From Anaerolineaceae bacterium UBA6073 (GTDB lineage: Bacteria; Chloroflexota; Anaerolineae; Anaerolineales; Anaerolineaceae), in the NCBI GenBank assembly GCA_002436085.1, contig DIXT01000021.1:685-64684 (forward strand): 64,000 nt of DNA. The letters are read 5' to 3'. A model generated the notes under the pieces. It was not told the DNA's origin, did not search any database, and saw only the letters and a list, made by a program, of their open reading frames with translations. Shown piece by piece: positions 2,914 to 35,465 of this stretch (positions within the stretch are counted from its first letter, which is position 1; each line of letters starts with the position of its first letter). The translations under genes and the position numbers were made by a program.

Positions 2914-3996
2914 ATGAAACGATGTGCCACGCTATTCCTTCTCTTCGCATTGCTTTTATCGGCGTGCGCGCAAGTTGCTCAAACGCAAACACCGCAAGCT
3001 GCCGGGCCCATCGCAGTGATAGACGCGCTGGGTCGCGAAGTAAAACTGGATAAGCTTCCCCAGCAAATCGCAGTAAGCGGCAGAGCATCGCTGATGATCC
3101 TTGATGCGCTGTATATGTTCCCTGAGGCGAAAGAGCGCGTCGTCGCGTTTGAGGATGCTGTTCAGGGCGATGTGAACTTCATTAAACTGTTGGACACACA
3201 GTACGCAGAAAAGGCATTCCTGAAGCGCGACGCCGGCGTGGAACAGTTTGTCACTGCCGAACCCGACCTGGTGTTGATGAAGAGTTCACAAGCTGAAAAG
3301 TTTGGAGCCCCCATTGAGGCGTTGAACATTCCTGTGGTATATCTGGATTTTGAGACCCCCGAGCAATACACGCGCGACCTGGCGGTTTTGGGTCAGATTT
3401 TTGGTAATGACGCCCGCGCGCAGGAACTTATCCAACTTTACCAGGGCGCAGTAGACGAAATCAATCAAAAGGTGCCCGCGGCAGCCGCAAAGCCGAACGT
3501 GCTTGTGCTGCAATACTCCGATAAGGATGGCGCGGTGGCGTTTGACGTGCCGCCGACCAGTTGGATGCAAACCCGGATGGTGGAGCTTGCTGGCGCCAAC
3601 CCGGTCTGGAAAGAGGCTAACCTGGGCTCTGGTTGGGCTCAGGTCACTATCGAGCAGGTAGCGGCGTGGGACCCGGACGTGATTCTGATAATCTCTTATG
3701 ATCAGAACCCGAGTGATGTCACCGCGATGCTGAAGCAGGATCCCCAATGGCAGCTGCTGCGCGCGGTAAAGGACGGCAAACTCTATGGTTTCCCCAAGGA
3801 TATTTACAGCTGGGATCAACCCGACACGCGCTGGCTGCTGGGCCTCAAGTGGCTGGCAAGCCTGCTGCACCCTGACGAATTTGGTCAGGTGGACGCTCTG
3901 CAGTCCGCGCGCGAATTCTATCAGTTCGCCTATGGAGTAGACGCGGCCAGCTACGACGCGATCATCCTTCCGGTTACCCAGGGCGACATCGATTGA
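2914..3996 (+). CDS. ABC transporter substrate-binding lipoprotein (iron-siderophore/cobalamin, FecB/BtuF type)
   Basis: ATG at 2914 is preceded by AGGAG (2903-2907). Lipoprotein signal MKRCATLFLLFALLLSAC. Operon context with a FecCD permease and an ATPase. The listed ORF 2773.. starts at an upstream TTG that is probably not used. Confidence 0.75.
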   Translation: MKRCATLFLLFALLLSACAQVAQTQTPQAAGPIAVIDALGREVKLDKLPQQIAVSGRASLMILDALYMFPEAKERVVAFEDAVQGDVNFIKLLDTQYAEKAFLKRDAGVEQFVTAEPDLVLMKSSQAEKFGAPIEALNIPVVYLDFETPEQYTRDLAVLGQIFGNDARAQELIQLYQGAVDEINQKVPAAAAKPNVLVLQYSDKDGAVAFDVPPTSWMQTRMVELAGANPVWKEANLGSGWAQVTIEQVAAWDPDVILIISYDQNPSDVTAMLKQDPQWQLLRAVKDGKLYGFPKDIYSWDQPDTRWLLGLKWLASLLHPDEFGQVDALQSAREFYQFAYGVDAASYDAIILPVTQGDID

Positions 3997-8839: not shown

Positions 8840-9739
8840 ATGCAAAGAGATTTAGATAGAGCGGACTGGGCCGTCGGGTTGATGCAGGCGCGCCAATCCG
8901 TGCGCAATTATAAAGAGGAACCAATTCCTGAGGAAATCCTCTATGAAGTGCTTGCCGCTGGAGTCAACAGCGCCACCGGCGGCAATTTGCAGCCTTATTC
9001 CATCATCGTGGAAAAGAACCGGCTTAAGAACCAGCAGCTGGCGCAGCTCTGCGGCGGTCAAAGTTTCATCGCGCAAGCGCCCGTGAACCTGATCTTCCTG
9101 CTGGACTGGCACAAGCTGGCGGTTTACAGCCGCAAAAACAACGCGCCGTTCACCTGCAACAAAAGCTTTCGGCACTACACCATTGCTATGGACGATATTG
9201 TTTGCGCCGCGCAGAGCGTTGAAACCGCGGCCTGGCTTTACGGCATCGGCAGTTGCTACGTCGGCACTATCCTGGAATGCATTCCCGTCGTCGCCGAAAT
9301 GTACAAACTGCCCTTGCTGGCCGCGCCGGTGCTGCTCCTGAGCCTGGGCTACCCCAAGACCCTGGCTGTGCCGCGCAAAAAGCTGGACCAGGACCTGGTG
9401 GTGTTCCGCGGCGCGTACCCCGCACTCAGCGTTGAGAAGATTTGCGAGGCGTACGACCGCAAGTATTCCGGCATGCGCTTTTCTCTGCCCGCGGATCCGC
9501 ACAGAAGGCAAGCGCTCCTGGAGGAATTCCGCGCGGCGCTGCGCACAACTTATAACGAAAGCAAATGCGACGAAATCATCCAGGCGGCTGATAAAGCTGG
9601 TTCGATTTCCGAAATTCAACGGCGCTTTGGGCTGCACTACCATGCTGCTGAAATGCTCAGCCCTGACGTCATCGAAGGGCTGGCCAGCCAGGGCATTTAT
9701 CCTTTTTACGGGCTGCTGGAGCAGGACCCCGAACTGTAA
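8840..9739 (+). CDS. nitroreductase family protein
   Basis: N-terminal RQSVRNYKEEPIPEEILYEVLAAGVNSATGGNLQPY matches the nitroreductase FMN-binding fold signature. Confidence 0.7.
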   Translation: MQRDLDRADWAVGLMQARQSVRNYKEEPIPEEILYEVLAAGVNSATGGNLQPYSIIVEKNRLKNQQLAQLCGGQSFIAQAPVNLIFLLDWHKLAVYSRKNNAPFTCNKSFRHYTIAMDDIVCAAQSVETAAWLYGIGSCYVGTILECIPVVAEMYKLPLLAAPVLLLSLGYPKTLAVPRKKLDQDLVVFRGAYPALSVEKICEAYDRKYSGMRFSLPADPHRRQALLEEFRAALRTTYNESKCDEIIQAADKAGSISEIQRRFGLHYHAAEMLSPDVIEGLASQGIYPFYGLLEQDPEL

Positions 9740-9837
9740 AGCGTGCTTCAGATTTCGCTGACCAATCAACTCTTGAGAGCGTCAGCGCTTGCTTGGTGCT
9801 TACTGTTTTTGCTTATTGACAACATAAGAATTACATC

Positions 9838-10068
9838 CTGACCGCGCGCTCACTCTGAGGTCGACAAGGGCCGCGGGTAGGGGCGAAGCATCCCAAAATG
9901 GGCGGCGCGTCTCATCCAGGACGCTAATCGACGAGGCGTGCTCTGATCGCGCCGGTCTCCTGGCCGCGCGCACACTCTGAGGTCGACCAAGGGCCGTGGG
10001 TAGGGGCGAAGCATCCTAAAATGGGCGGCGCGTCTCATCCAGGACGCTAATCGAGGATGCTTCGCCCG
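9838..10068. repeat. tandem GC-rich repeat (2 units of about 113 bp) containing hairpin module GGGCGAAGCATC...GATGCTTCGCCC
   Basis: Unit ..ctctgaggtcgac(c)aagggccg(c/t)gggtaggggcgaagcatcc(c/t)aaaatgggcggcgcgtctcatccaggacgctaatcga.. occurs at about 9850-9950 and again at 9963-10063. A partial third copy lies at 10598-10680. Confidence 0.85.
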
Positions 10069-10396
10069 TACGACCGGATAACACGGTCTGGAGCGGCAGC
10101 TTGAAGAGTGGAAGCCGCTTTACGACCTTAGAAAAGAGGAGACCTGCGGTGTCAGGCCTTTCGCGCGGTCTGCCCACACGCACCTTCGGTGCTGGGGTGC
10201 TACGCAAGATCGGCGATATCAAAGGGGCTGTCCAAGTAAACAGGCAGATCGCACCCTCCCTTCGGGAGCAGGCGTCGCTGCGCTCCTCACGATGACGCCC
10301 GATTCGTCATTGCGAGCCGTTTTGCCATCGAATTCGGCGCAAACCAGCCCGGTCTGTCAGGCAAAACGGCGTGGCAATCTGCCTGTGTGCCTGACC

Positions 10397-10636
10397 GGGA
10401 GATCGCTTCGTGCCTCGCGGTGACGCCCGATTCGTCATTGCGAGCCCCCGCTGCAGGAATATTTCCGGTGCCAAAAATGCGGAAGGGGGTGCGGCAATCT
10501 GCCTGTGTGCCTGACCGGGAGAGCGCTTCGCAGGACCTGTACCCTTCAGGGTATCGCGATGACGGGTGATTCGGCAGGGAGATCGCTTCGTGCCTCACGA
10601 TGACGAGGCGTGCTCTGATCGCGCCGGTCTCCTGAC
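10397..10636. repeat. about 240-bp composite repeat, copy 1 (left flank of the methyltransferase/DUF262 cassette)
   Basis: Near-identical, in the same orientation, to 13439-13676. Runs gggagatcgcttcgtgcctcgcggtgacgcccgattcgtcattgcgagcccccgctgcagg...gatcgcgccggtctcctgac. Confidence 0.9.
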
Positions 10637-10731
10637 TGCGCGCACACTCTGAGGTCGACCAAGGGCCGCGGGTAGGGGTGAAGCAAAGAGGAAGAGGAAC
10701 AGGCGTTTTTTGTTCAGCTTCTCATTCAATG

Positions 10732-11814
10732 TCAGATACCGGCCTTCCTGCGGTTGCAGTCCTTACACAGCATCTGGCAGTTCTCTGGCAGGGTCTTTCC
10801 CCCCAGGTGCCAGGGGGTGATGTGGTCCCCTTCCATCTCGGAGAATTCAAAGTGCAGCCCGCAGCTTCGGCAATTGCCGTTTTGCCTTTCATAAGCTGCT
10901 CTCCTTTGGCTTTCAGAAAAAGAGCGGATATTCAATGTTTTCTCATTGCGGGTCAGCACATAGGCATACACACCCCGCTTGTTGGTAACATCATCATCCA
11001 TCATCAAACTTTTGATTTCCTGTTCCAATTTACCCGTGTCAAACAGCGTATCTTTATATTGGTCATACAGGCCGCCCCAATCCAAGCCCTTCATTTCCCG
11101 GCGGTATACGGGGAAAGTGAGTTCCACCCAGTCAATCACGTTGTGGAAGTACAGCCAGAGTTCATTGGCGTTCGGGTCGTGCTGGTGCGCGCCCATGTAG
11201 GCTTCAATGTTGCCTTTGGATATCCAATCCAGCGCGGTTTCCAGGATTTCCTGGCGGATGGGGGAGCCGTTCACATACTTATTCGCCAGCCCGTATGCCG
11301 CGCAGTTGCTCTTGCTGAAAATGGATTTGGCATGCGTGAGCCAGGGACCGGTGTAGACGGCGTTGCGCATTTCCTGCTCGGTCAGCTTCAGCCCGGCGAT
11401 GTTGATGATGCGGAACCAATCCAGCCTTTCTTTCTCGTCGCCCTCGCAGAAGTAAATCATGAGGGTGTAGTTGAGAATTAGCTCCTGCTCGGGTTTGGTG
11501 AGGTTGTGGAAGGCGCGGTTGTCGATGGAGAAGTCGTTATTGACGTACTGGCAGAAGCTGACGGTGCGCTGCTGTCCGTCCAGCATTTCGTAGCCGCCGT
11601 CAGCGTTGCGCATCCAGTACATCACGTTCAGAGGGAAGCCCTTGCGGATGGTATCCAGCACGGCGTCGCGCTTGGCGGGGTCGTAGACGAACTCGCGCTG
11701 ATACTTGGGGCGGATATTCAACCTGCCGCCGTAGCCGACCACGCCCTCTTCGGCGTTATCCACGTAGCCCTGGACGACCTCGCGGATGCTGATTTCGTGC
11801 AATTTGATAATCAT
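10732..11814 (-). CDS. DUF262 (ParB-like nuclease fold) protein with C-terminal HNH endonuclease domain
   Basis: N-terminal DUF262 hallmark LDGQQR (..YEMLDGQQRTVSF..). C-terminal HNH CRSCG..GDHITPWHLGG..NCQMLCKDCNRRK. ATGA overlap with the upstream methyltransferase gene. Confidence 0.8.
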   Translation of the reverse strand: MIIKLHEISIREVVQGYVDNAEEGVVGYGGRLNIRPKYQREFVYDPAKRDAVLDTIRKGFPLNVMYWMRNADGGYEMLDGQQRTVSFCQYVNNDFSIDNRAFHNLTKPEQELILNYTLMIYFCEGDEKERLDWFRIINIAGLKLTEQEMRNAVYTGPWLTHAKSIFSKSNCAAYGLANKYVNGSPIRQEILETALDWISKGNIEAYMGAHQHDPNANELWLYFHNVIDWVELTFPVYRREMKGLDWGGLYDQYKDTLFDTGKLEQEIKSLMMDDDVTNKRGVYAYVLTRNEKTLNIRSFSESQRRAAYERQNGNCRSCGLHFEFSEMEGDHITPWHLGGKTLPENCQMLCKDCNRRKAGI

Positions 11815-12836
11815 AATTTTCCATCCCTCCGCTTAATCAATATCCGGAAATACGGACATTTGCCATTTATTGATAAATCTTTGTCGTCATCGCCTTTGCG
11901 AAATTTGACAATTTCAAACTGGTCTGGATTATATTTATCAAGAAAGGTAATCGGGACGCCCATTGCTCCATCATAATCGCAGGGGATGTCTGTGTACCTA
12001 TCCACATTGATTGCGTCATAATTATCATAATGGGGGTAGACATCAGGCGTGTATCTCCGGTAGAGTGTGATTTTTTCCTTGTGTTTTTTTACTTCCAGAT
12101 TTGTAAACCAACAAGAGGATGCAACTCTGACAACTTTTCGGCCGTCCTCTACTTTATGATAGATTTCCCAGCTATCAGGAACATAAAAATGCATCCCGAC
12201 ATTAAAGTTTGTATATCCGGTACGGATGCTGTCGTCTTTAAACATACGAAATATTTCTTTATAGGTTAATGAGTTCGTATTACCGATGATAATGAACTTC
12301 TTGTCATACTCCACCAATTGCGCCACGTACTCGCGGAAGAGCGAGAAGGGCGGGTTGGTCACCACGATGTCGGCTTCTTTCAGCAGTTCCACGCACTCCG
12401 CCGAACGGAAGTCGCCGTCGCCCTCCAGGAACGAAAAAACATTCTTGCGGCTCTTCAGCAGGTTTTCCACGTCCGCCAGGTCCACCGCGCCGTCCGCGTT
12501 CTCATCCGGCACTTCCGTGATTTCAATCCGGCAGGCGGGTTTCTCCGCGCTCGGGCGGTTCTTGAGCGTCTGGATTTCAAAGAGCGGCAGCTGCCCGTAT
12601 GCCACCGGCGAATCGGAATAGCTGGTGGCGATGAGCTTTTTCAAGCCCAGGTAATTGAAGTTCATCGCGAAGTACTTGAAAAAATTGCTCTCGTAGGGGT
12701 CGTCGCAGTTGCACAGGACCACCTTGCCGCGGAAGTGCTCCTTGTAGTGGCGCAGTTCCACCTCAATATCCGGCATCTGCGTGTAAAACTCGTCGGCTTT
12801 GTTTCTCTTGGCTTTATCTAATAGTTCTGTCGCCAT
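11811..12836 (-). CDS. N6-adenine DNA methyltransferase (EcoRI-methylase-like family)
   Basis: Motif IV VTNPPFS. N-terminal block ADEFYTQMPDIE..VVLCNCDDPYESNFFKYF and C-terminal GVPITFLDKYNPDQFEI are typical of this family. ATG at 12836 is the probable start. The listed ORF begins at an upstream TTG (12917). Confidence 0.8.
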   Translation of the reverse strand: MATELLDKAKRNKADEFYTQMPDIEVELRHYKEHFRGKVVLCNCDDPYESNFFKYFAMNFNYLGLKKLIATSYSDSPVAYGQLPLFEIQTLKNRPSAEKPACRIEITEVPDENADGAVDLADVENLLKSRKNVFSFLEGDGDFRSAECVELLKEADIVVTNPPFSLFREYVAQLVEYDKKFIIIGNTNSLTYKEIFRMFKDDSIRTGYTNFNVGMHFYVPDSWEIYHKVEDGRKVVRVASSCWFTNLEVKKHKEKITLYRRYTPDVYPHYDNYDAINVDRYTDIPCDYDGAMGVPITFLDKYNPDQFEIVKFRKGDDDKDLSINGKCPYFRILIKRRDGKL

Positions 12837-12913
12837 AACACCCCGTGCTCCTGTCCCGCATCCGTTTTTTATAATGGTTCTATTGTAACCAATTCCCCCG
12901 CTTTTGGTCGAAA

Positions 12914-13174
12914 TCAATCTGGCATCGGATACAAGAAACCCAGCGTCTGTATTTTCGCTTTCTGGATGCTCAGACGTCGTTTAATACTTGCGAACTCAGC
13001 CGCTTGCTTATCTGTAAACACGTTAGGATTAAGACGCCTCAGCCTTCCAAGTGCTGTGTCCCAATCAAACCTAATGCTTACCCTTTCAAGCTCAGACCAA
13101 GGCAAATTTATTGTTTCAATGTCGGACAAAACACCAGATATATATTCAAGATCCCAATCTATTTTTTGTTCCAT
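12914..13174 (-). CDS. small hypothetical protein (86 aa), first gene of the cassette
   Basis: The ATG at 13174 is preceded by AGGAGA about 11 nt upstream. Its stop overlaps the methyltransferase long ORF. AT-rich. No motif recognised. Confidence 0.5.
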   Translation of the reverse strand: MEQKIDWDLEYISGVLSDIETINLPWSELERVSIRFDWDTALGRLRRLNPNVFTDKQAAEFASIKRRLSIQKAKIQTLGFLYPMPD

Positions 13175-13438
13175 TTCAAGGTCGCTCTCCTGGATGAAGT
13201 AATTATATGATCAATAGCATACAATAGGTCGGGCTGCGTTCTCCAACCCGACATTACCCCTCTGATCGCGTGCGATCTGACAAAAGGAAGACCCTTCGCG
13301 AGCTCAGGGTGACAAGCCCAATACTTTCAGGCAGGTCCCACAAGGGGTGCTTCGCTATGCCTCGCCCCCTTCCTGTAACAAATCGGCCTCGTGGATTAAA
13401 TACAACGGGGGCGCGACAACCTGCCTTTAATACCAGCC

Positions 13439-13676
13439 GGGAGACCGCTTCGTGCCTCGCGGTGACGCGCGATTCGTCATTGCGAGCCCCCGCTGCAGGA
13501 ATATTTCCGGTGCCAAAAATGCGGAAGGGGGTGCGGCAATCTGCCTGTGTGCCTGACCGGGAGATCGCTTCGCAGGACCTGTACCCTTCAGGGTATCGCG
13601 ATGACGGGTGATTCGGCAGGGAGTTCGCTTCGTGCCTCGATGACGAGACGTGCTCTGATCGCGCCGGTCTCCTGAC
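13439..13676. repeat. about 240-bp composite repeat, copy 2 (right flank of the cassette)
   Basis: Direct repeat of 10397-10636 with only a handful of substitutions and a 1-nt indel. Confidence 0.9.
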
Positions 13677-13753
13677 CATAAACAGAATGGCTGCTGATTT
13701 ATTATGATATATTTATATACTATTTCCAATTCCTTAGGTTATGGAGGCAATGA

Positions 13754-14698
13754 ATGAGCGCTGTGCTTGAAGTCCACAATCTTGTGAAAAAATACGGCGG
13801 TAAGTCAGCCGTGGACGATATTTCCTTTGACATTCAGGAAGGGGAAATATTCAGCCTGCTGGGTCCGAACGGCGCCGGAAAAACAACCACAATCTCCATC
13901 CTTTCCACGCTGTTCGCGCCCACCGAAGGCGACGCGTCCATCTTCGGATTTTCGGTAACTAAAAATCCGATGGAGGTTAAGCGCTTGATTGGGGTGGTTC
14001 CGCAGGAGATTGCGCTTTACGACGACATGACCGCGCTCGAGAACCTGAATTTCTGGGGCGAGATGTACGGCCTTTCCGGCAGTGCGCTGAAAACCCGCGT
14101 GAAGGAGCTGCTGGAGCAAATTGGGCTGGCAGACCGCGCCAAAGAGCGCATCAAGACCTACAGCGGCGGGATGAAGCGGCGGGTGAACATCGCCGTCGGG
14201 CTGCTGAACAAACCGCGCCTGCTGTTTATGGACGAACCGACCGTCGGCATCGACCCGCAGTCGCGCCGGGCAATCCTCGATTCGGTCAAGTCCCTGAACG
14301 ACGCCGGCATGACCATTCTTTACACCACGCACTACATGGAAGAAGCGCAGGAACTCTCGGACCGGGTCGGGATCATTGACCACGGCAAGCTGATTGCCCT
14401 GGGCACCCAGTCTGAACTGACCGCCCAGGTGGGGGAGATGGACACCCTGATCCTGCACCTCGGTGAAAATGAGGATCCTGAACACCTTGCTCAGGGGCTG
14501 AAAACGCTCAGTGGCGTTTTGCAGGCGGACCCGAGCGACCACAGCGTGGCGCTGGTCACGCCCTCCGCGGAAGAACTGCTGGCGCAGGTGGTTTCCCGCG
14601 CCAACGAGCTGGGGATCAAGATCCATTCAGTGGATATACGCGAACCGAACCTTGAAGCAGTGTTTCTGCACCTGACCGGACGCGCCTTAAGGGATTGA
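13754..14698 (+). CDS. ABC-2 type transporter ATP-binding protein
   Basis: Walker A GPNGAGKTT, signature YSGGMKRR, Walker B LLFMDEPTVGID, H-loop TTHY. Confidence 0.88.
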   Translation: MSAVLEVHNLVKKYGGKSAVDDISFDIQEGEIFSLLGPNGAGKTTTISILSTLFAPTEGDASIFGFSVTKNPMEVKRLIGVVPQEIALYDDMTALENLNFWGEMYGLSGSALKTRVKELLEQIGLADRAKERIKTYSGGMKRRVNIAVGLLNKPRLLFMDEPTVGIDPQSRRAILDSVKSLNDAGMTILYTTHYMEEAQELSDRVGIIDHGKLIALGTQSELTAQVGEMDTLILHLGENEDPEHLAQGLKTLSGVLQADPSDHSVALVTPSAEELLAQVVSRANELGIKIHSVDIREPNLEAVFLHLTGRALRD

Positions 14699-17322: not shown

Positions 17323-17610
17323 CCCACTATTGAACAATATGCGACCACTATGTGGCAAAGGGTCGTGGCAGTCTGCCCTTAAATCATTCGAGAACCTATG
17401 ACACATAGGTTGTAAAAAGTATTTGAAATAAAGCTGAACTCTCAAGTGTGAGAGCTCTAAAAAAAGGCAGATTGCTGCACCCCCTTCTTGTGTTTCCAGA
17501 TTCCGTGATGGATCTGCAGCGGGGGCTCGCAATGACGAATCGTCAATAGAAGGCAACAAAACGAGGCTCCCATGCGGGAGTCTCGTTTATCAACACAAAA
17601 AGCCAGAACG

Positions 17611-25174: not shown

Positions 25175-25490
25175 TATCAGCCGCCCTGCCTGTTTTTATT
25201 GAATAGATTGATTATAGTGCTTTTCCGGGCTTTTTTAGTGAGCCTGCTTAAGGGAAATATATCAATCAGCTCCTATGCCGGACCACCATGTTATTGACCT
25301 AAAACCTCGGAAAGGGTAAATGAATCTAGCAATCTTTGCTGAGTCTATAGCGGTGGTATGAAGAACATATGTCAGCGAACCCAAAAACACAGATCGGGTT
25401 GCTCCCTTCAGCCCGACGACGCTTTCACAAGCGGCAGCTTGAAAGGCGCATGTGGCCTTGCGGTTAACTGCCCTCGAAAGATCATCGCTG

Positions 25491-25555
25491 GGGGCGAAGC
25501 ATCTTTTATTAGCGCAGCAGAGGACGGAGTGCCTTCCAGAGTGACGCTTCGCCCC
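25491..25555. repeat. 65-bp hairpin repeat, copy 1 (GGGGCGAAGCATC..loop..GACGCTTCGCCCC)
   Basis: ggggcgaagcatcttttattagcgcagcagaggacggagtgccttccagagtgacgcttcgcccc. Nearly identical to 25856-25919. Confidence 0.85.
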
Positions 25556-25855
25556 TGGGCCCGAAGGGCACGTTCATCGGAGCGGCAGCTTGAAAAGCAC
25601 AAGCAGCTCCACTGAAGGAAAGCTTCTCTTGTGACGGTTGGGGTGCCTTAGGCAAGCTGCCTGCGAGGTTACAGAAGTCTTTTACCTTCTCCAAGGGAGA
25701 AGGTGCCCGCAGGGCGGATGAGGGTCTTGTAGTGCCCCTCATCAGTCTCGCTGCGCTCGCCAGCTTTGCCTTCGGCACGCGAGCAGAGCCTTCGGCACGC
25801 AAGCAGTCCGGGGAGAAGCTTTTTCAAACCAGCTGCCCTACGATTTTCACCGGTA

Positions 25856-25919
25856 GGGGCGAAGCATCTTTTATTAGCGCAGCAGAGGACGGAGTGCCTT
25901 CCAGAGTGATGCTTCGCCC
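25856..25919. repeat. 65-bp hairpin repeat, copy 2
   Basis: Same sequence as 25491-25555 with one substitution in the 3' stem (gatgcttcgccc). Confidence 0.85.
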
Positions 25920-26196
25920 TTACGTCCAATGGCATTACCCACCGCTGTAGCGGCGTGAAAAACGCATACTGCCCTACAGCTCGCAAAAGAAACCATCGCA
26001 AACCTGTTTCATTCACCCGCGCGGCTTCAGGATATAATGAGGGCAGAGAAATTCAGGAGGAGCATGCTCACCCAACCCTGCGAATTTCAACTTAGAGGCG
26101 CGCAAGTTCAAACTGGCGCGGCAGAACTTCCCTTGCCCACAAAGCAACGCGATTTCATCCTGTCCTCACCCCACCATTTACCAAAAAGGAGATCCA

Positions 26197-32855: not shown

Positions 32856-35465
32856 CTATTCTGCCGTCAATGCCAACCAGCGTTCATTGGTGTGGTAGTC
32901 CTCCCAATCCAGATCCTGGCGCACCCATTTCCGCTCGACCTCTCCAGAAGTTATCGCCTGCTGCAGCAAGTCCAAGGCAAGCCCGGCTTCTCCAGTCAAG
33001 GCGGCAATGCAAGCCTGATTGTAAAGAATTTCATTGGCGATTAAACTGCGCGCTGTGGCAAACTCAGCCTGTGCTTCCTCTGCGCACCCCAGTTTCTGGT
33101 AAACCGACCCCAGTTGGGCGTGGTAATCTACGCTATCGGGCATCAACATGACAAGCTGTTGAAGGACCAGCAGCGCGTCTGCAAACCGCTTTGTCATTCT
33201 CAGCAGCAGCCCCAGGTTGTTCCAGGCAGGAGCAAGTTTCTCATCGGCTGCCACAGCAGCTCGATATGCCTGTTCAGCGCCCCCCGGGTCGCCCTTGTTA
33301 TCCAGCAGCACTCCCAGGTTGTACCAGACAAGAGCAAGTTTCTCGTCGTCTGCCACGGCGGCACGATAAGCATGTTCAGCCCCCACCAGATCACCCTTAT
33401 TAGCCAACAGCACCCCCAGGTTGGACCAGGCAGGAGCATATTTCACATCGGCTGCCACGGCGGCACGATAAGCCTGTTCAGCCCCCACTAGATTACCCTT
33501 CTTATCCAGCAGCAGCCCCAGGTTGTACCAGGCAGGAGCATATTTCTCATCGGCTGCCACAGCTTTACGCCAGGCTTCCGCAGCTCCCACCAGAGCACCT
33601 TTATCCTTCAACAGCACCCCCAGGTTGTACAAGGCAGGAGCAAGTTTCTCATCGGCTGCCACGGCTTTACGCCAGGCTTGTTCAGCCCCCATCAGGTCAC
33701 CCTTATCCTTCAGCAGCAGCCCCAGGTTGGACCAGGCAGGAACAAATTTCTAATCGGCTGCCACGGCGGCACGATAAGCCTGTTCAGCCCCCTCCAGATC
33801 ACCTTTATGTTTCAGCAGCAGCCCCAGGTTGTTCCAGGCAGGAGCAAGTTTCTCATCAGCGGCTACGGCGGCACGATAAGCCTGTTCAGCCCCCACCAGA
33901 TCACCCTTTTCTTCCAGCAGCACCCCATAATTCCTCCAAATCCGAGCTGACGGTTGAGCAACCCTGGTTGCCTGTTTCATCAACTCCAAAGCTTTATCAA
34001 TTTGCCCTTTAAAATAATAATTACCCGCGAGATCAACAAGCAAGTCTTGTTGCGCGCCAGCTTGCGCATTAAAACGGCGCAGCCATGCATTGCGCAGCCA
34101 CCACCGATGCGCGAGGGCAAAGTTTTTCAATCGTGTTAAGGCCTCATTGGCCGATTTTTCTACTGTTTGATTTGGGTCGCCTGGGCACAATTTTCCCTTT
34201 TCGCATAGAACTTTAATTGCTGCTTCCGCTGCCGCATCCGGAAACTTAACGCGCTCCTCTTGGAAGTCGATAGCATACTTCTTTAGCATTTCAAGAACTT
34301 TTTCCCAACGCTGCTTGAAGCCCCATAACAGAGGCCATTTGTGATGCGCGAATACCAGGCTGCGGGCGTAAGCCTTGAAAATAGCAGGGTGGGCGGTGAT
34401 GTTGGCAGTGTAAAAAACCGCCAGCGCTTCGAAGAATTCTTCCGCCAGAGAATCAGCTTTTTTAATCTGCGTCTGGATGTCCAGCCAGATTGTTTGGGCG
34501 GATCCTTTAGATTCATCTTCTGCCAGTTCTTCTGTGATTACCTTGCTATCAGAGTTGGCCAGTTTGGTTTTTAGGTTTATGAAGGAAAGGATGGGATGGT
34601 AAGGCGTTCCGTCCATGTGTCCACACAGGGTTTGCTTCGCATTGGGTTCCCACTGGAACCCATGCAGGCTTGCCAGCTCCTCCACCAATTGCCCGGTCTG
34701 GCTTTCTGCCAGCAATGGCAGCTCTACGCTCTTTACCTGGTTTTTAACTAGCCAGGATTTCAAGGGGGCGTTAGCCGCCAAATGGTCACTGCGGGCTGTT
34801 GCCAGGAAGTATCCCGGGCTACAGCCCTTCAACTCTTTTAAGTACGCGTCTAAAACCTCCAATTGTTTTTCAGAGGCCTGACGAGGCAAATCGTTGACAT
34901 AAAAAACTACTCGCTGTCCGGGGTCCAGTTTATTTCGGACCGTTTCGGTAATCAGCTTTGGATCAAGAGCGCTTATTCCTCCGGTAATGTCATACACACA
35001 GGAAGAAACGAACGTGCCATCCTCCATTCGTTTACGAATGAACTCGGCAATTTCACGCGACTTGCCTGAATTCATTCTTCCCACCAGAAGGATTTTATGG
35101 TCAATGTGCAATTGATCCGCGGTTAAAGCTCCCCTGTCGATCCAAGTTATTTTTTGATCATATGCGGGCACATATTCCTTGATTAACTGCTCAGGGGACG
35201 TCTGGCGCAATATTCTATCAGTATTATCTACAACACTGCCAGAGGGGGGAGATGGCAAGATAGAATTTACAAGCGCATTGATGAATGTAGGTAAAGCAAT
35301 AATTGTTGTGATTAACCATTTAATAAAATCGCGGAAATTTTCGTCATATACATCTGGTGAAAGTAACTGTCCGCCCCATTTCCAAATAATGAAAATCGTA
35401 CCCGCTGCCAGGAATAAAAAAAGCAGGCTTCTATTCCTTCGAATACTTTGCTTTTTTTTCTCCAT
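32856..35465 (-). pseudogene. membrane-anchored P-loop NTPase with long C-terminal TPR array, interrupted by one in-frame TAG
   Basis: ORFs 33750..35465 and 32856..33692 are in the same frame. The TAG at 33750-33752 replaces the GAG found at the equivalent position of neighbouring TPR units (..AAVAAD*KFVPAW.. versus ..AAVAADEKLAPAW..). Walker A GRMNSGKS. Two N-terminal hydrophobic helices. Confidence 0.7.

Follow-up and report, generated by a model that had tools for sequence, protein, structure and literature searches.

A probable BanLI-like restriction-modification module of apparently foreign origin within a repeat field of an Anaerolineaceae genome

The DUF262 nucleases studied so far (GmrSD, BrxU, and SspE) all sense modified DNA (PMC4619093, PMC12707154). 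The BanLI restriction-modification (R-M) system of Bifidobacterium animalis subsp. lactis is composed of an EcoRI-like methylase of 41.7 kDa followed by a restriction gene encoding a protein of 43.5 kDa, in a low-GC locus placed beside a phage integrase (PMC3990576). The methylase M.BanLI deposits N6-methyladenine (m6A) on one strand only of the asymmetric motif RTCAGG, read as RTC(m6A)GG; in E. coli the cloned system lowers the plating of P1vir about tenfold (efficiency of plating, EOP, ~0.1), pre-methylation lifts transformation 1.8-fold, and the authors labelled BanLI an incomplete Type IIS system (PMC3990576). According to a 2026 paper, the REBASE Type II restriction endonuclease for RTCAGG is the product of a gene that bears the annotation 'DUF262 domain-containing protein' (PMC13091528). 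The present analysis concerns a cassette coding for a methylase and a DUF262-HNH nuclease, found between two direct repeats in a stretch of 64,000 nucleotides of Anaerolineaceae bacterium UBA6073 (DIXT01000021.1); this whole stretch is called the window hereafter, and coordinates are positions within it. With a probability that we put at about 0.7, the interval 12907-10688 represents a horizontally acquired two-gene R-M module of the BanLI-like family, with the history proposed below.

BanLI (REBASE M.BanLI/R.BanLI; Ban8145ORF124P) is likely the prototype of the family, on the basis of architecture, protein sizes, annotation, and PADLOC models. In both loci a methylase gene precedes a gene of ~43 kDa annotated as DUF262, the GC content is below that of the host, phage-derived DNA adjoins the pair, and the system is catalogued as Type II; the two differ in that BanLI has an integrase as a neighbour, whereas the copy in the window is set among repeats, next to truncated genes, and in that the methylase of the window carries its own block at amino acids (aa) 194-250, for which reason its motif is probably not RTCAGG. 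The same two genes, with an overlapping stop and start, are found in Sulfitobacter indolifex on plasmid pDSM14862_g (DSM14862_04460 and its neighbour), and are thus plasmid-borne, unlike those of the window, to which they are 55% (nuclease) and 47% (methylase) identical. In that species a strain-specific GGCATC m6A motif was reported, GAATTC being unmethylated, and a novel R-M system was suggested (PMC9025767); GGCATC, derived from PacBio data, is a candidate motif for the pair, and a literature search on it returned unrelated papers only. The methylase of the window shares with M.EcoRI the family PF13651, of which the latter is the prototype, the NPPF catalytic motif, and the N6-adenine chemistry, but its partner is not a PD-(D/E)XK nuclease of the EcoRI type and its relatives methylate one strand of asymmetric motifs; since the Sulfitobacter relative leaves GAATTC unmethylated (PMC9025767), GAATTC specificity is not to be assumed.

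GmrSD, BrxU, and SspE, which are DUF262-DUF1524 enzymes of Type IV or sense phosphorothioate (PT), share with the window's nuclease a DUF262 domain of ParB/sulfiredoxin (Srx)-like fold at the N-terminus, including the invariant DGQQR, then helices in the middle of the chain, and a His-Me finger nuclease at the C-terminus; the window's protein is, however, ~200 residues shorter and bears a zinc-finger HNH domain of the PF01844 type instead of DUF1524, its family is always coupled to a methylase, and the data on relatives speak for restriction of unmethylated and not of modified DNA. By analogy only, a likeness may also be drawn with Type III (Mod/Res) systems, in which one methylase modifies a single strand at a short asymmetric site, its recognition domains are exchanged against a constant nuclease, and this nuclease subunit has a switch domain that binds nucleotides; the likeness is one of function alone, the window having a ParB/Srx-like domain and an HNH domain in place of a superfamily 2 (SF2) helicase-like Res with PD-(D/E)XK. 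Other leads proved to lie outside the family, namely PcaRCII (PMC8989522), Menshen/NsnA (PMC12065111), and the DUF262 genes of Acinetobacter BREX loci (PMC10117892); the CGCGA motif of C. jejuni (PMC7785942) was likewise set aside, as no Campylobacter plasmid carried a full-length homolog.

An initial annotation, made by a model from the letters alone, had described three leftward open reading frames (ORFs) inside the repeat pair, and these were recovered at 13174-12914 (86 aa), 12917-11811 (368 aa, TTG start), and 11814-10732 (360 aa), and the NPPF, DGQQR, and CxxC..DH..N..CxxCN motifs are all present; Pfam and PADLOC profiles identify the second and the third as methylase and nuclease. In the nuclease, Pfam places GmrSD_N/DUF262 (PF03235) at residues 34-154 (E=3.5e-17) and HNH at residues 315-357 (E=1.4e-13), the C-terminus corresponding to a PF01844/PF14279 HNH domain with two CxxC pairs; no match to DUF1524 (PF07510) was returned by Pfam and no helicase motifs (SF2, Type III Res) were found in the protein. 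The PADLOC model REase_II PDLC03418 covers almost the entire chain (residues 3-357 of 360, model positions 3-369 of 372, E=2.7e-136), while the matches to NsnA and PD-T4-2_A are weak. Residues D79-G80-Q81-Q82-R83, C315, C318, D330-H331, N345, C350, and N354 are invariant in the family, and the catalytic residues of the window's copy are intact on alignment, in keeping with the earlier assignment. An AlphaFold2 (AF2) model built on an alignment of 82 diverse sequences, with a predicted local distance difference test score (pLDDT) of 92.7, replaced an earlier AlphaFold model from a shallow alignment of 32 sequences (pLDDT 56), which was discarded; in the accepted model the chain divides into a ParB-CTP/sulfiredoxin-like N-domain, a middle made of helices, and the HNH domain. 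The N-domain of the model resembles ParB-CTP structures and the C-domain the Gme HNH nicking endonuclease, and over the whole chain the best matches, weak ones, are BrxU and SspE; structure comparison found no close solved structure for the nuclease, and a sequence search of the PDB matched only its HNH part and returned nothing for the methylase.

The methylase in turn falls into the EcoRI family (PF13651 EcoRI_methylase, E=1e-134, 449 bits against a gathering cutoff of 26.4; PADLOC MTase_II PDLC03297, 7-328/332, E=4.2e-124), and its motif IV reads VVTNPPFSLF. Gene callers place the start at ATG 12836, the Pfam match begins at residue 33 of the 368-aa form, and the homology of this region to relatives begins 70 bp upstream of that ATG; the protein most likely starts there, and would thus have 341 rather than 368 residues. 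This start leaves a gap of 77 bp after the 86-aa ORF, which holds the conserved -10 box and ribosome-binding site (RBS) of the module, with a promoter-like match TCGACC-18-TACAAT upstream of the methylase. The overlapping stops and starts described in the initial annotation are therefore to be kept for methylase and nuclease, joined by an ATGA overlap at 11814-11811 that is preceded by a GGAGGG RBS, but not for the 86-aa ORF and the methylase, which overlap only if the upstream TTG is used. From this layout, methylase and nuclease appear to be co-transcribed from their own promoter and translationally coupled. Two homopolymers within the methylase gene vary among assemblies: the A7 tract at 12084-12090 is A6 in three others (L003/L016, L005, and L007), a variant that shifts the frame near residue 250 in the 341-aa form (~277-282 of the 368-aa ORF) and leaves the nuclease intact, and the T6 tract at 12434-12439 is T5 in L007; these A6 and T5 variants could be homopolymer sequencing errors or a real methylase-off variant.

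The nuclease belongs to a very large family, with more than 8000 close matches (the best 74-89% identical, nearly all of 360 aa) and 505 clusters at 50% identity and E<1e-30. Plasmids contribute 44 full-length copies across Bacillota, Actinomycetota, Pseudomonadota, and Bacteroidota, and the pair is found on plasmids of Staphylococcaceae, Aeromonas, Sulfitobacter, and Enterococcus; IMG/VR holds 123 confirmed nuclease matches, and in the cultured Flavobacterium phage vB_FspS_laban6-1 a copy of the module is a reverse-strand moron beside the tape-measure gene. Linkage was counted over 84 fetched loci of phages and plasmids, 82 of which are informative, i.e., include the DNA upstream of the nuclease gene: an EcoRI-family methylase lies near the nuclease in the same orientation in all 82, and directly upstream of it in 70. 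In many phyla, whether on phages, plasmids, or chromosomes, methylase and nuclease form an obligate unit. The 'atypical R-M pair' of the initial annotation is thus a coupled R-M pair, linked across phyla, but no one-off: the pair of the window is another member of a widespread, already catalogued family, and this copy is ordinary. Two database proteins, P0159 (688 aa) and P0260 (515 aa), combine EcoRI_methylase and DUF262 in single polypeptides, with HNH present in P0159; they could be real fusions or could reflect a 1-bp error that led to read-through of the ATGA junction. Mycobacterium phages Hami1, Marchy, and Norz (PQ362672, PQ362668, ON970624) retain only the first 43 nuclease residues (56% identical) beside an annotated DNA methyltransferase, which looks like a nuclease remnant next to a retained, now orphan methylase.

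That the cassette is an addition to the genome emerges from the comparison of the site among relatives. In five sister metagenome-assembled genomes (MAGs), whose flanking proteins are 87-93% identical to those of the window, a nitroreductase gene is followed by the ABC ATPase gene at a distance of 170-335 bp, and neither cassette nor repeats were found at the site in any of the five. The unique intergenic DNA of the window amounts to 86+77=163 bp, which matches the length of the sister sites; because of this correspondence the whole block 9826-13676 is regarded as extra, and because the site is empty in relatives the sequence comparison marks the cassette as foreign and horizontally acquired. 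The initial annotation had proposed that the empty site of relatives might hold a single repeat copy: the site is indeed empty in the sister species, but these are free of repeats and the one cassette-free strain found is differently arranged. The latter is represented by a contig (L017) from the same metagenome as a cassette-bearing contig, in which an identical left flank leads to repeat units A1, A2, and C, then to an extra A-C unit, and continues through the start of an A unit and the ABC promoter into an ABC gene 96% identical to that of the window; this haplotype therefore has the repeat field without the B units, without the cassette, and without the 242-bp composite. Its origin by simple recombination between the two 242-bp copies was ruled out, as it lacks B2-B3 and has the extra A-C unit.

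The boundaries of the module are set by its closest relative, a nuclease 89% identical in another Anaerolineaceae MAG (L008), which lies at a different genome location between a ParE/HicB pair and a CPBP/Rce1-like gene. DNA homology between the window and this locus runs from 12907 to 10688, its downstream end being 44 bp past the nuclease stop. A second module copy, with a nuclease 82% identical and a different methylase block, was observed in contigs L137 and L138 (JGI 3300057060; ENA ERZ27315036 k141_33971), one of which was obtained from the sample that also contains the window's strain; there, in a different Anaerolineaceae lineage, the copy lies ~1.8 kb downstream of the ortholog of the window's ABC2b gene, and so beyond the opposite end of the same ABC-transporter operon. 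Copies of the module are also seen beside toxin-antitoxin pairs, as in small defence islets (L008 6077-6626, ParE/HicB; L139 1-406, HicA/HicB).

The foreign fragment, of ~2.5 kb and with a GC content of 49.7% against 57-60% in the adjoining host genes, consists of a truncated MuF-like gene with the 86-aa ORF (orf86), the methylase-nuclease pair, and a truncated CPBP gene. Searches of orf86 against Pfam, PADLOC, NCBIfam, and PHROGs gave no match; its homologues form only six clusters (67-74% identical, 86-89 aa), and in metagenome contigs they lie in the order portal, unknown, MuF-like (Phage_Mu_F) minor head protein, orf86, scaffold, while a scan of viral contigs yielded no confirmed match to orf86. 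DNA homology to the phage contigs spans 13214-12936 (76%), and the remnant of the MuF-like protein ends in ...ATLKWNKK* where the phage has ...SDLKWIKK*; when the related phage's portal, MuF, and scaffold proteins were searched against the window, nothing turned up beyond orf86 and the MuF remnant. As orf86 is absent from all 84 other R-M loci, the three-gene operon of the initial annotation does not hold; judged by its homologues, the ORF is a hitch-hiking passenger from a tailed-phage head module, outside the R-M module. At the opposite end, the stump past the nuclease stop has its counterpart in L008 in the start of a 327-aa PF02517 gene (window LNEKLNKKRLFLFL, L008 LIEKANKQRLWIFL). The features of the locus are collected in Table 1.

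Table 1. Features of the cassette-bearing locus and its surroundings in the window.
Feature	Position	Strand	Basis or remark
Nuclease: DUF262 (ParB/Srx-like nucleoside triphosphate (NTP)-binding fold, DGQQR), helical linker, HNH zinc finger; 360 aa	10732..11814	-	Pfam, PADLOC, AF2 model
EcoRI-family (gamma-class, NPPF) N6-adenine DNA methyltransferase, 341 aa	11811..12836	-	PF13651, PADLOC MTase_II; ATGA overlap with nuclease start
5' region of the module, TACAAT -10 box and GGAG RBS	12837..12907	-	both kept in L008; L008 homology starts at 12907; upstream module boundary
orf86 (86 aa), tailed-phage head-morphogenesis passenger	12914..13174	-	six homologous clusters in phage head modules
MuF-like minor head protein gene remnant, last ~40 bp	13175..13214	-	phage-contig DNA homology
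CPBP/Rce1-like gene stump, first ~15 codons, cut by repeat unit A3	10688..10731	-	44-bp L008 homology past nuclease stop
Left GC-rich repeat field (62% GC)	9826..10687		repeat families, self-BLAST
Left-field units (approximate)	A1 9836-9957, A2 9958-10079, C 10061-10274, B1 10275-10402		
Left-field units, continued (approximate)	B2 10403-10522, B3 10523-10597, A3 10598-10685		
Left 242-bp composite direct repeat (end of B1, B2, B3, start of A3)	10395..10636	+	235/242 identical to 13437-13676
Right composite direct repeat	13437..13676	+	ends ...GGTCTCCTGAC, directly against the unique ABC promoter region
Unique GC-rich spacer X	13215..13436		terminator-like hairpin 13252-13228, - strand
Left flanking host gene, nitroreductase family	8840..9739	+	Pfam Nitroreductase; its 3' end bounds the insertion site on one side
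Right flanking host gene, ABC transporter ATPase	13754..14698	+	Pfam ABC_tran

Taken as a horizontally acquired BanLI-like module, the locus would work as follows: by analogy with M.BanLI at RTCAGG, the methylase would mark a single strand of a short asymmetric motif with m6A, and the nuclease would cut DNA lacking the methylase's mark. The fragment as a whole may be the remnant of a larger phage-derived element, trimmed by recombination among the host repeats, as is suggested by the fact that both of its edges are truncated genes adjoining repeats; the two 242-bp copies would be a by-product of such repeat recombination or duplication and not functional ends of a mobile element. Post-segregational killing is a known property of Type II R-M systems, and the R-M pair may have survived the trimming on account of the penalty that such killing imposes on its loss.

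Several points weigh against this explanation. The window contains no integrase, att site, or further phage genes, and hence the history as a larger element is a reconstruction; the features by which a prophage is recognised (integrase, att sites, contiguous structural or lysis genes) were not found within the window. The left part of the cassette-free contig L017 could be chimeric through the identical A units, and the path of ~1 kb leading into its ABC gene is the only part that carries single-nucleotide polymorphisms (SNPs) of its own. Restriction activity and motif are drawn by analogy from relatives, BanLI being the only one in which an m6A motif and restriction of unmethylated DNA were both demonstrated (PMC3990576); furthermore, a search seeded with a Bifidobacterium choerinum fragment listed no B. 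animalis name. The variable blocks of the methylase might be surface loops with no effect on specificity, and a methylase frameshift beside an intact nuclease, if real, would be hard to square with a lethal restriction enzyme.

How the target is chosen was approached by comparing the divergence of methylase and nuclease over 69-72 paired systems. In these the nuclease is free of indels, and in 90% of the pair comparisons it exceeds its own methylase in conservation; in the methylase, mean identity is 66% over the catalytic core and 37% over the aa 194-250 block, and the C-terminus is variable, these variable parts lying downstream of NPPF, the place occupied by the target recognition domain in methylases of the gamma class. 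The block occurs in at least 25 types among 72 systems and is shuffled relative to the nuclease: loci L139 and L141 have nucleases 91% identical and methylase blocks 32% identical, the window and L141 share 78% identity in the nuclease and 66-68% in the block, 21 of the 44 pairs with nucleases 75-99% identical have blocks that are at most 45% identical, and in 39 pairs nucleases at most 62% identical accompany blocks at least 65% identical. Swaps of this kind could not be tolerated by a nuclease with a sequence specificity of its own, the motifs so far linked to the family are asymmetric, and the BanLI mark is on one strand; on these grounds we tentatively suggest, at somewhat less than even odds, that specificity is supplied by the methylase and that the DUF262-HNH protein serves as a generic effector, with nucleotide binding as its probable gate. 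The wider proposal that the BanLI-like family forms a distinct class, in which the methylase recognises DNA via exchangeable blocks and recruits or licenses a constant, ParB-like, NTP-gated HNH nuclease, is more doubtful; if true, one-strand methylation of asymmetric sites would be tolerated much as in Type III systems, a switch of the ParB/CTPase type replacing one of the helicase type.

Two other functional explanations have to be confronted with these data. An orthodox Type II system (IIP or IIS), whose nuclease reads its own sequence and whose family shares one or a few closely co-evolving specificities, would agree with the Type II label given by PADLOC and REBASE (PMC13091528), with the treatment of BanLI as an (incomplete) Type IIS system (PMC3990576), and with the overall correlation between nuclease and methylase identities (r=0.64); it is nevertheless unlikely, considering that the nuclease shows neither variable region nor indels while methylase blocks are swapped, to the point that almost identical nucleases are paired with blocks of low identity (the 91% and 32% given above), and that the motifs linked to the family (RTCAGG and the candidate GGCATC, not GAATTC) differ, are asymmetric, and are served by one methylase, a situation that an independent nuclease could not tolerate after replication (PMC3990576, PMC9025767). 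Still less probable, and indeed hard to maintain, is a GmrSD-like Type IV enzyme directed against modified phage DNA, the methylase being a separate function (orphan or phage anti-restriction): the sensing of modified DNA by every biochemically studied DUF262 nuclease (PMC4619093, PMC12707154), the weak whole-protein structural similarity to BrxU and SspE, and the weak PADLOC matches already mentioned (NsnA, PD-T4-2_A) speak for it, but one methylase family is linked to the nuclease in 82/82 loci, with ATGA coupling and occasional fusions, the C-terminal domain is a classic PF01844 HNH and not DUF1524, and in the BanLI system methylation by M.BanLI before transformation is beneficial while RM.BanLI restricts unmodified P1 (PMC3990576).

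The repeats raise a different question, namely whether they delimit a mobile unit. The initial annotation was right in placing the cassette between two near-identical repeats of the same orientation and inside a larger repeat field, which on the right extends over 13215-13676; the two copies differ by 5 mismatches and one 2-bp gap, with weaker similarity reaching back to 10368/13410, and an identity so high over 242 bp cannot be chance. The A units hold a hairpin, GGGCGAAGCATCC...GGATGCTTCGCCC, and units of these types are met again at 17465-17542 and ~25400-25950 of the window as well as in L134 and L008; spacer X, on the other hand, occurs only once in the window and in none of the fetched loci. 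Rfam searches of the repeat fields found no RNA family, and the 242-bp repeat, folded as single-stranded DNA, does no better than its shuffles (z=-0.16), so that the composite as a whole is not a structured element, even if single A units still hold their hairpin. The exact 23-nt repeat core was found in one related contig (L134) of the metagenome collections and in none of the viral collections, which makes it less likely that the repeat is part of a phage or mobile element; the presence of the same composite B2-B3-A junction in both 242-bp copies indicates a segmental duplication and not two insertions. The repeats are best read as lineage-specific dispersed host repeats expanding in tandem, and not as mobile-element ends.

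The contrary explanation, by which the 242-bp repeats are the functional ends, att-like or similar to those of an insertion sequence (IS) or a miniature inverted-repeat transposable element (MITE), of a discrete cassette that inserts and excises, takes its appeal from the position of the cassette exactly between same-orientation copies 97% identical, from the short-read unitigs (L006 and L007) that stop at the repeat edges, and from the A-type hairpin that adjoins the module of L008 as well, 22 bp upstream. It is very unlikely: no transposase or recombinase is encoded by the three ORFs between the repeats; the latter are direct composites, not terminal inverted repeats, of units found elsewhere without the cassette; truncated genes adjoin them at both sides; the module common to L008, L137, L139, and L141 ends at 12907/10688, with unrelated DNA beyond; the repeat pattern was not found in viral contigs; and the cassette-free haplotype differs from the product expected of recombination between the copies. 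Of the features of a composite transposon, IS, or MITE (recombinase, terminal inverted repeats, the unit elsewhere), none was found. As to the repeats as a route for deletion or acquisition, suggested in the initial annotation, they do flank the cassette as direct repeats and deletion could still occur, but no deletion product was seen. Lastly, the layout might be ascribed to misassembly of a repeat-rich region, within which numerous short-read contigs indeed stop; a 33-kb JGI contig (L003/L016), however, covers 9700-13800 at 99.98% identity, and the full structure is crossed by independent assemblies from different samples and assemblers (L003/L016, L005, and L004/L023) at 99.98-100% identity. 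Since several other assemblies cross the whole structure in this way, the repeat-cassette-repeat layout is not an assembly artefact, a negligible chance apart.

For the genome, the preferred explanation, i.e., a BanLI-like R-M module brought in with a phage-derived fragment, would mean a recent horizontal acquisition and an intergenic region shaped by dispersed host repeats together with a selfish R-M pair; the presence/absence polymorphism at population level could be followed in digester metagenomes. A single copy of a common and catalogued family adds little, and the family-wide pattern of an invariant nuclease with shuffled methylase blocks is more useful; taken with the asymmetry of the motifs linked to the family so far and the one-strand mark of BanLI, it gives grounds to re-examine BanLI-type systems, which may be methylase-directed, nucleotide-gated enzymes rather than defective Type IIS ones.

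Some further observations concern repeats elsewhere. Contig L134 (MTKZ01044097.1) has at 3013-3474 a B-type array of ~460 bp where the window, at 17326-17542, keeps a piece of ~80 bp, so that the copy number of the repeats varies among close relatives. The region ~25400-25950 of the window contains intergenic GC-rich hairpin repeats, GGGGCGAAGCATC...GCTTCGCCCC, with two 100-nt copies 365 bp apart, and GCGGCAGCTTGAA motifs common to unit C of the left repeat field. At 33201-33926 a tandem array with a period of 102 bp (7.1 copies, 83% matches) lies in coding sequence of the - strand (ORFs 32856-33692 and 33750-35465), and probably encodes a 34-residue protein repeat.

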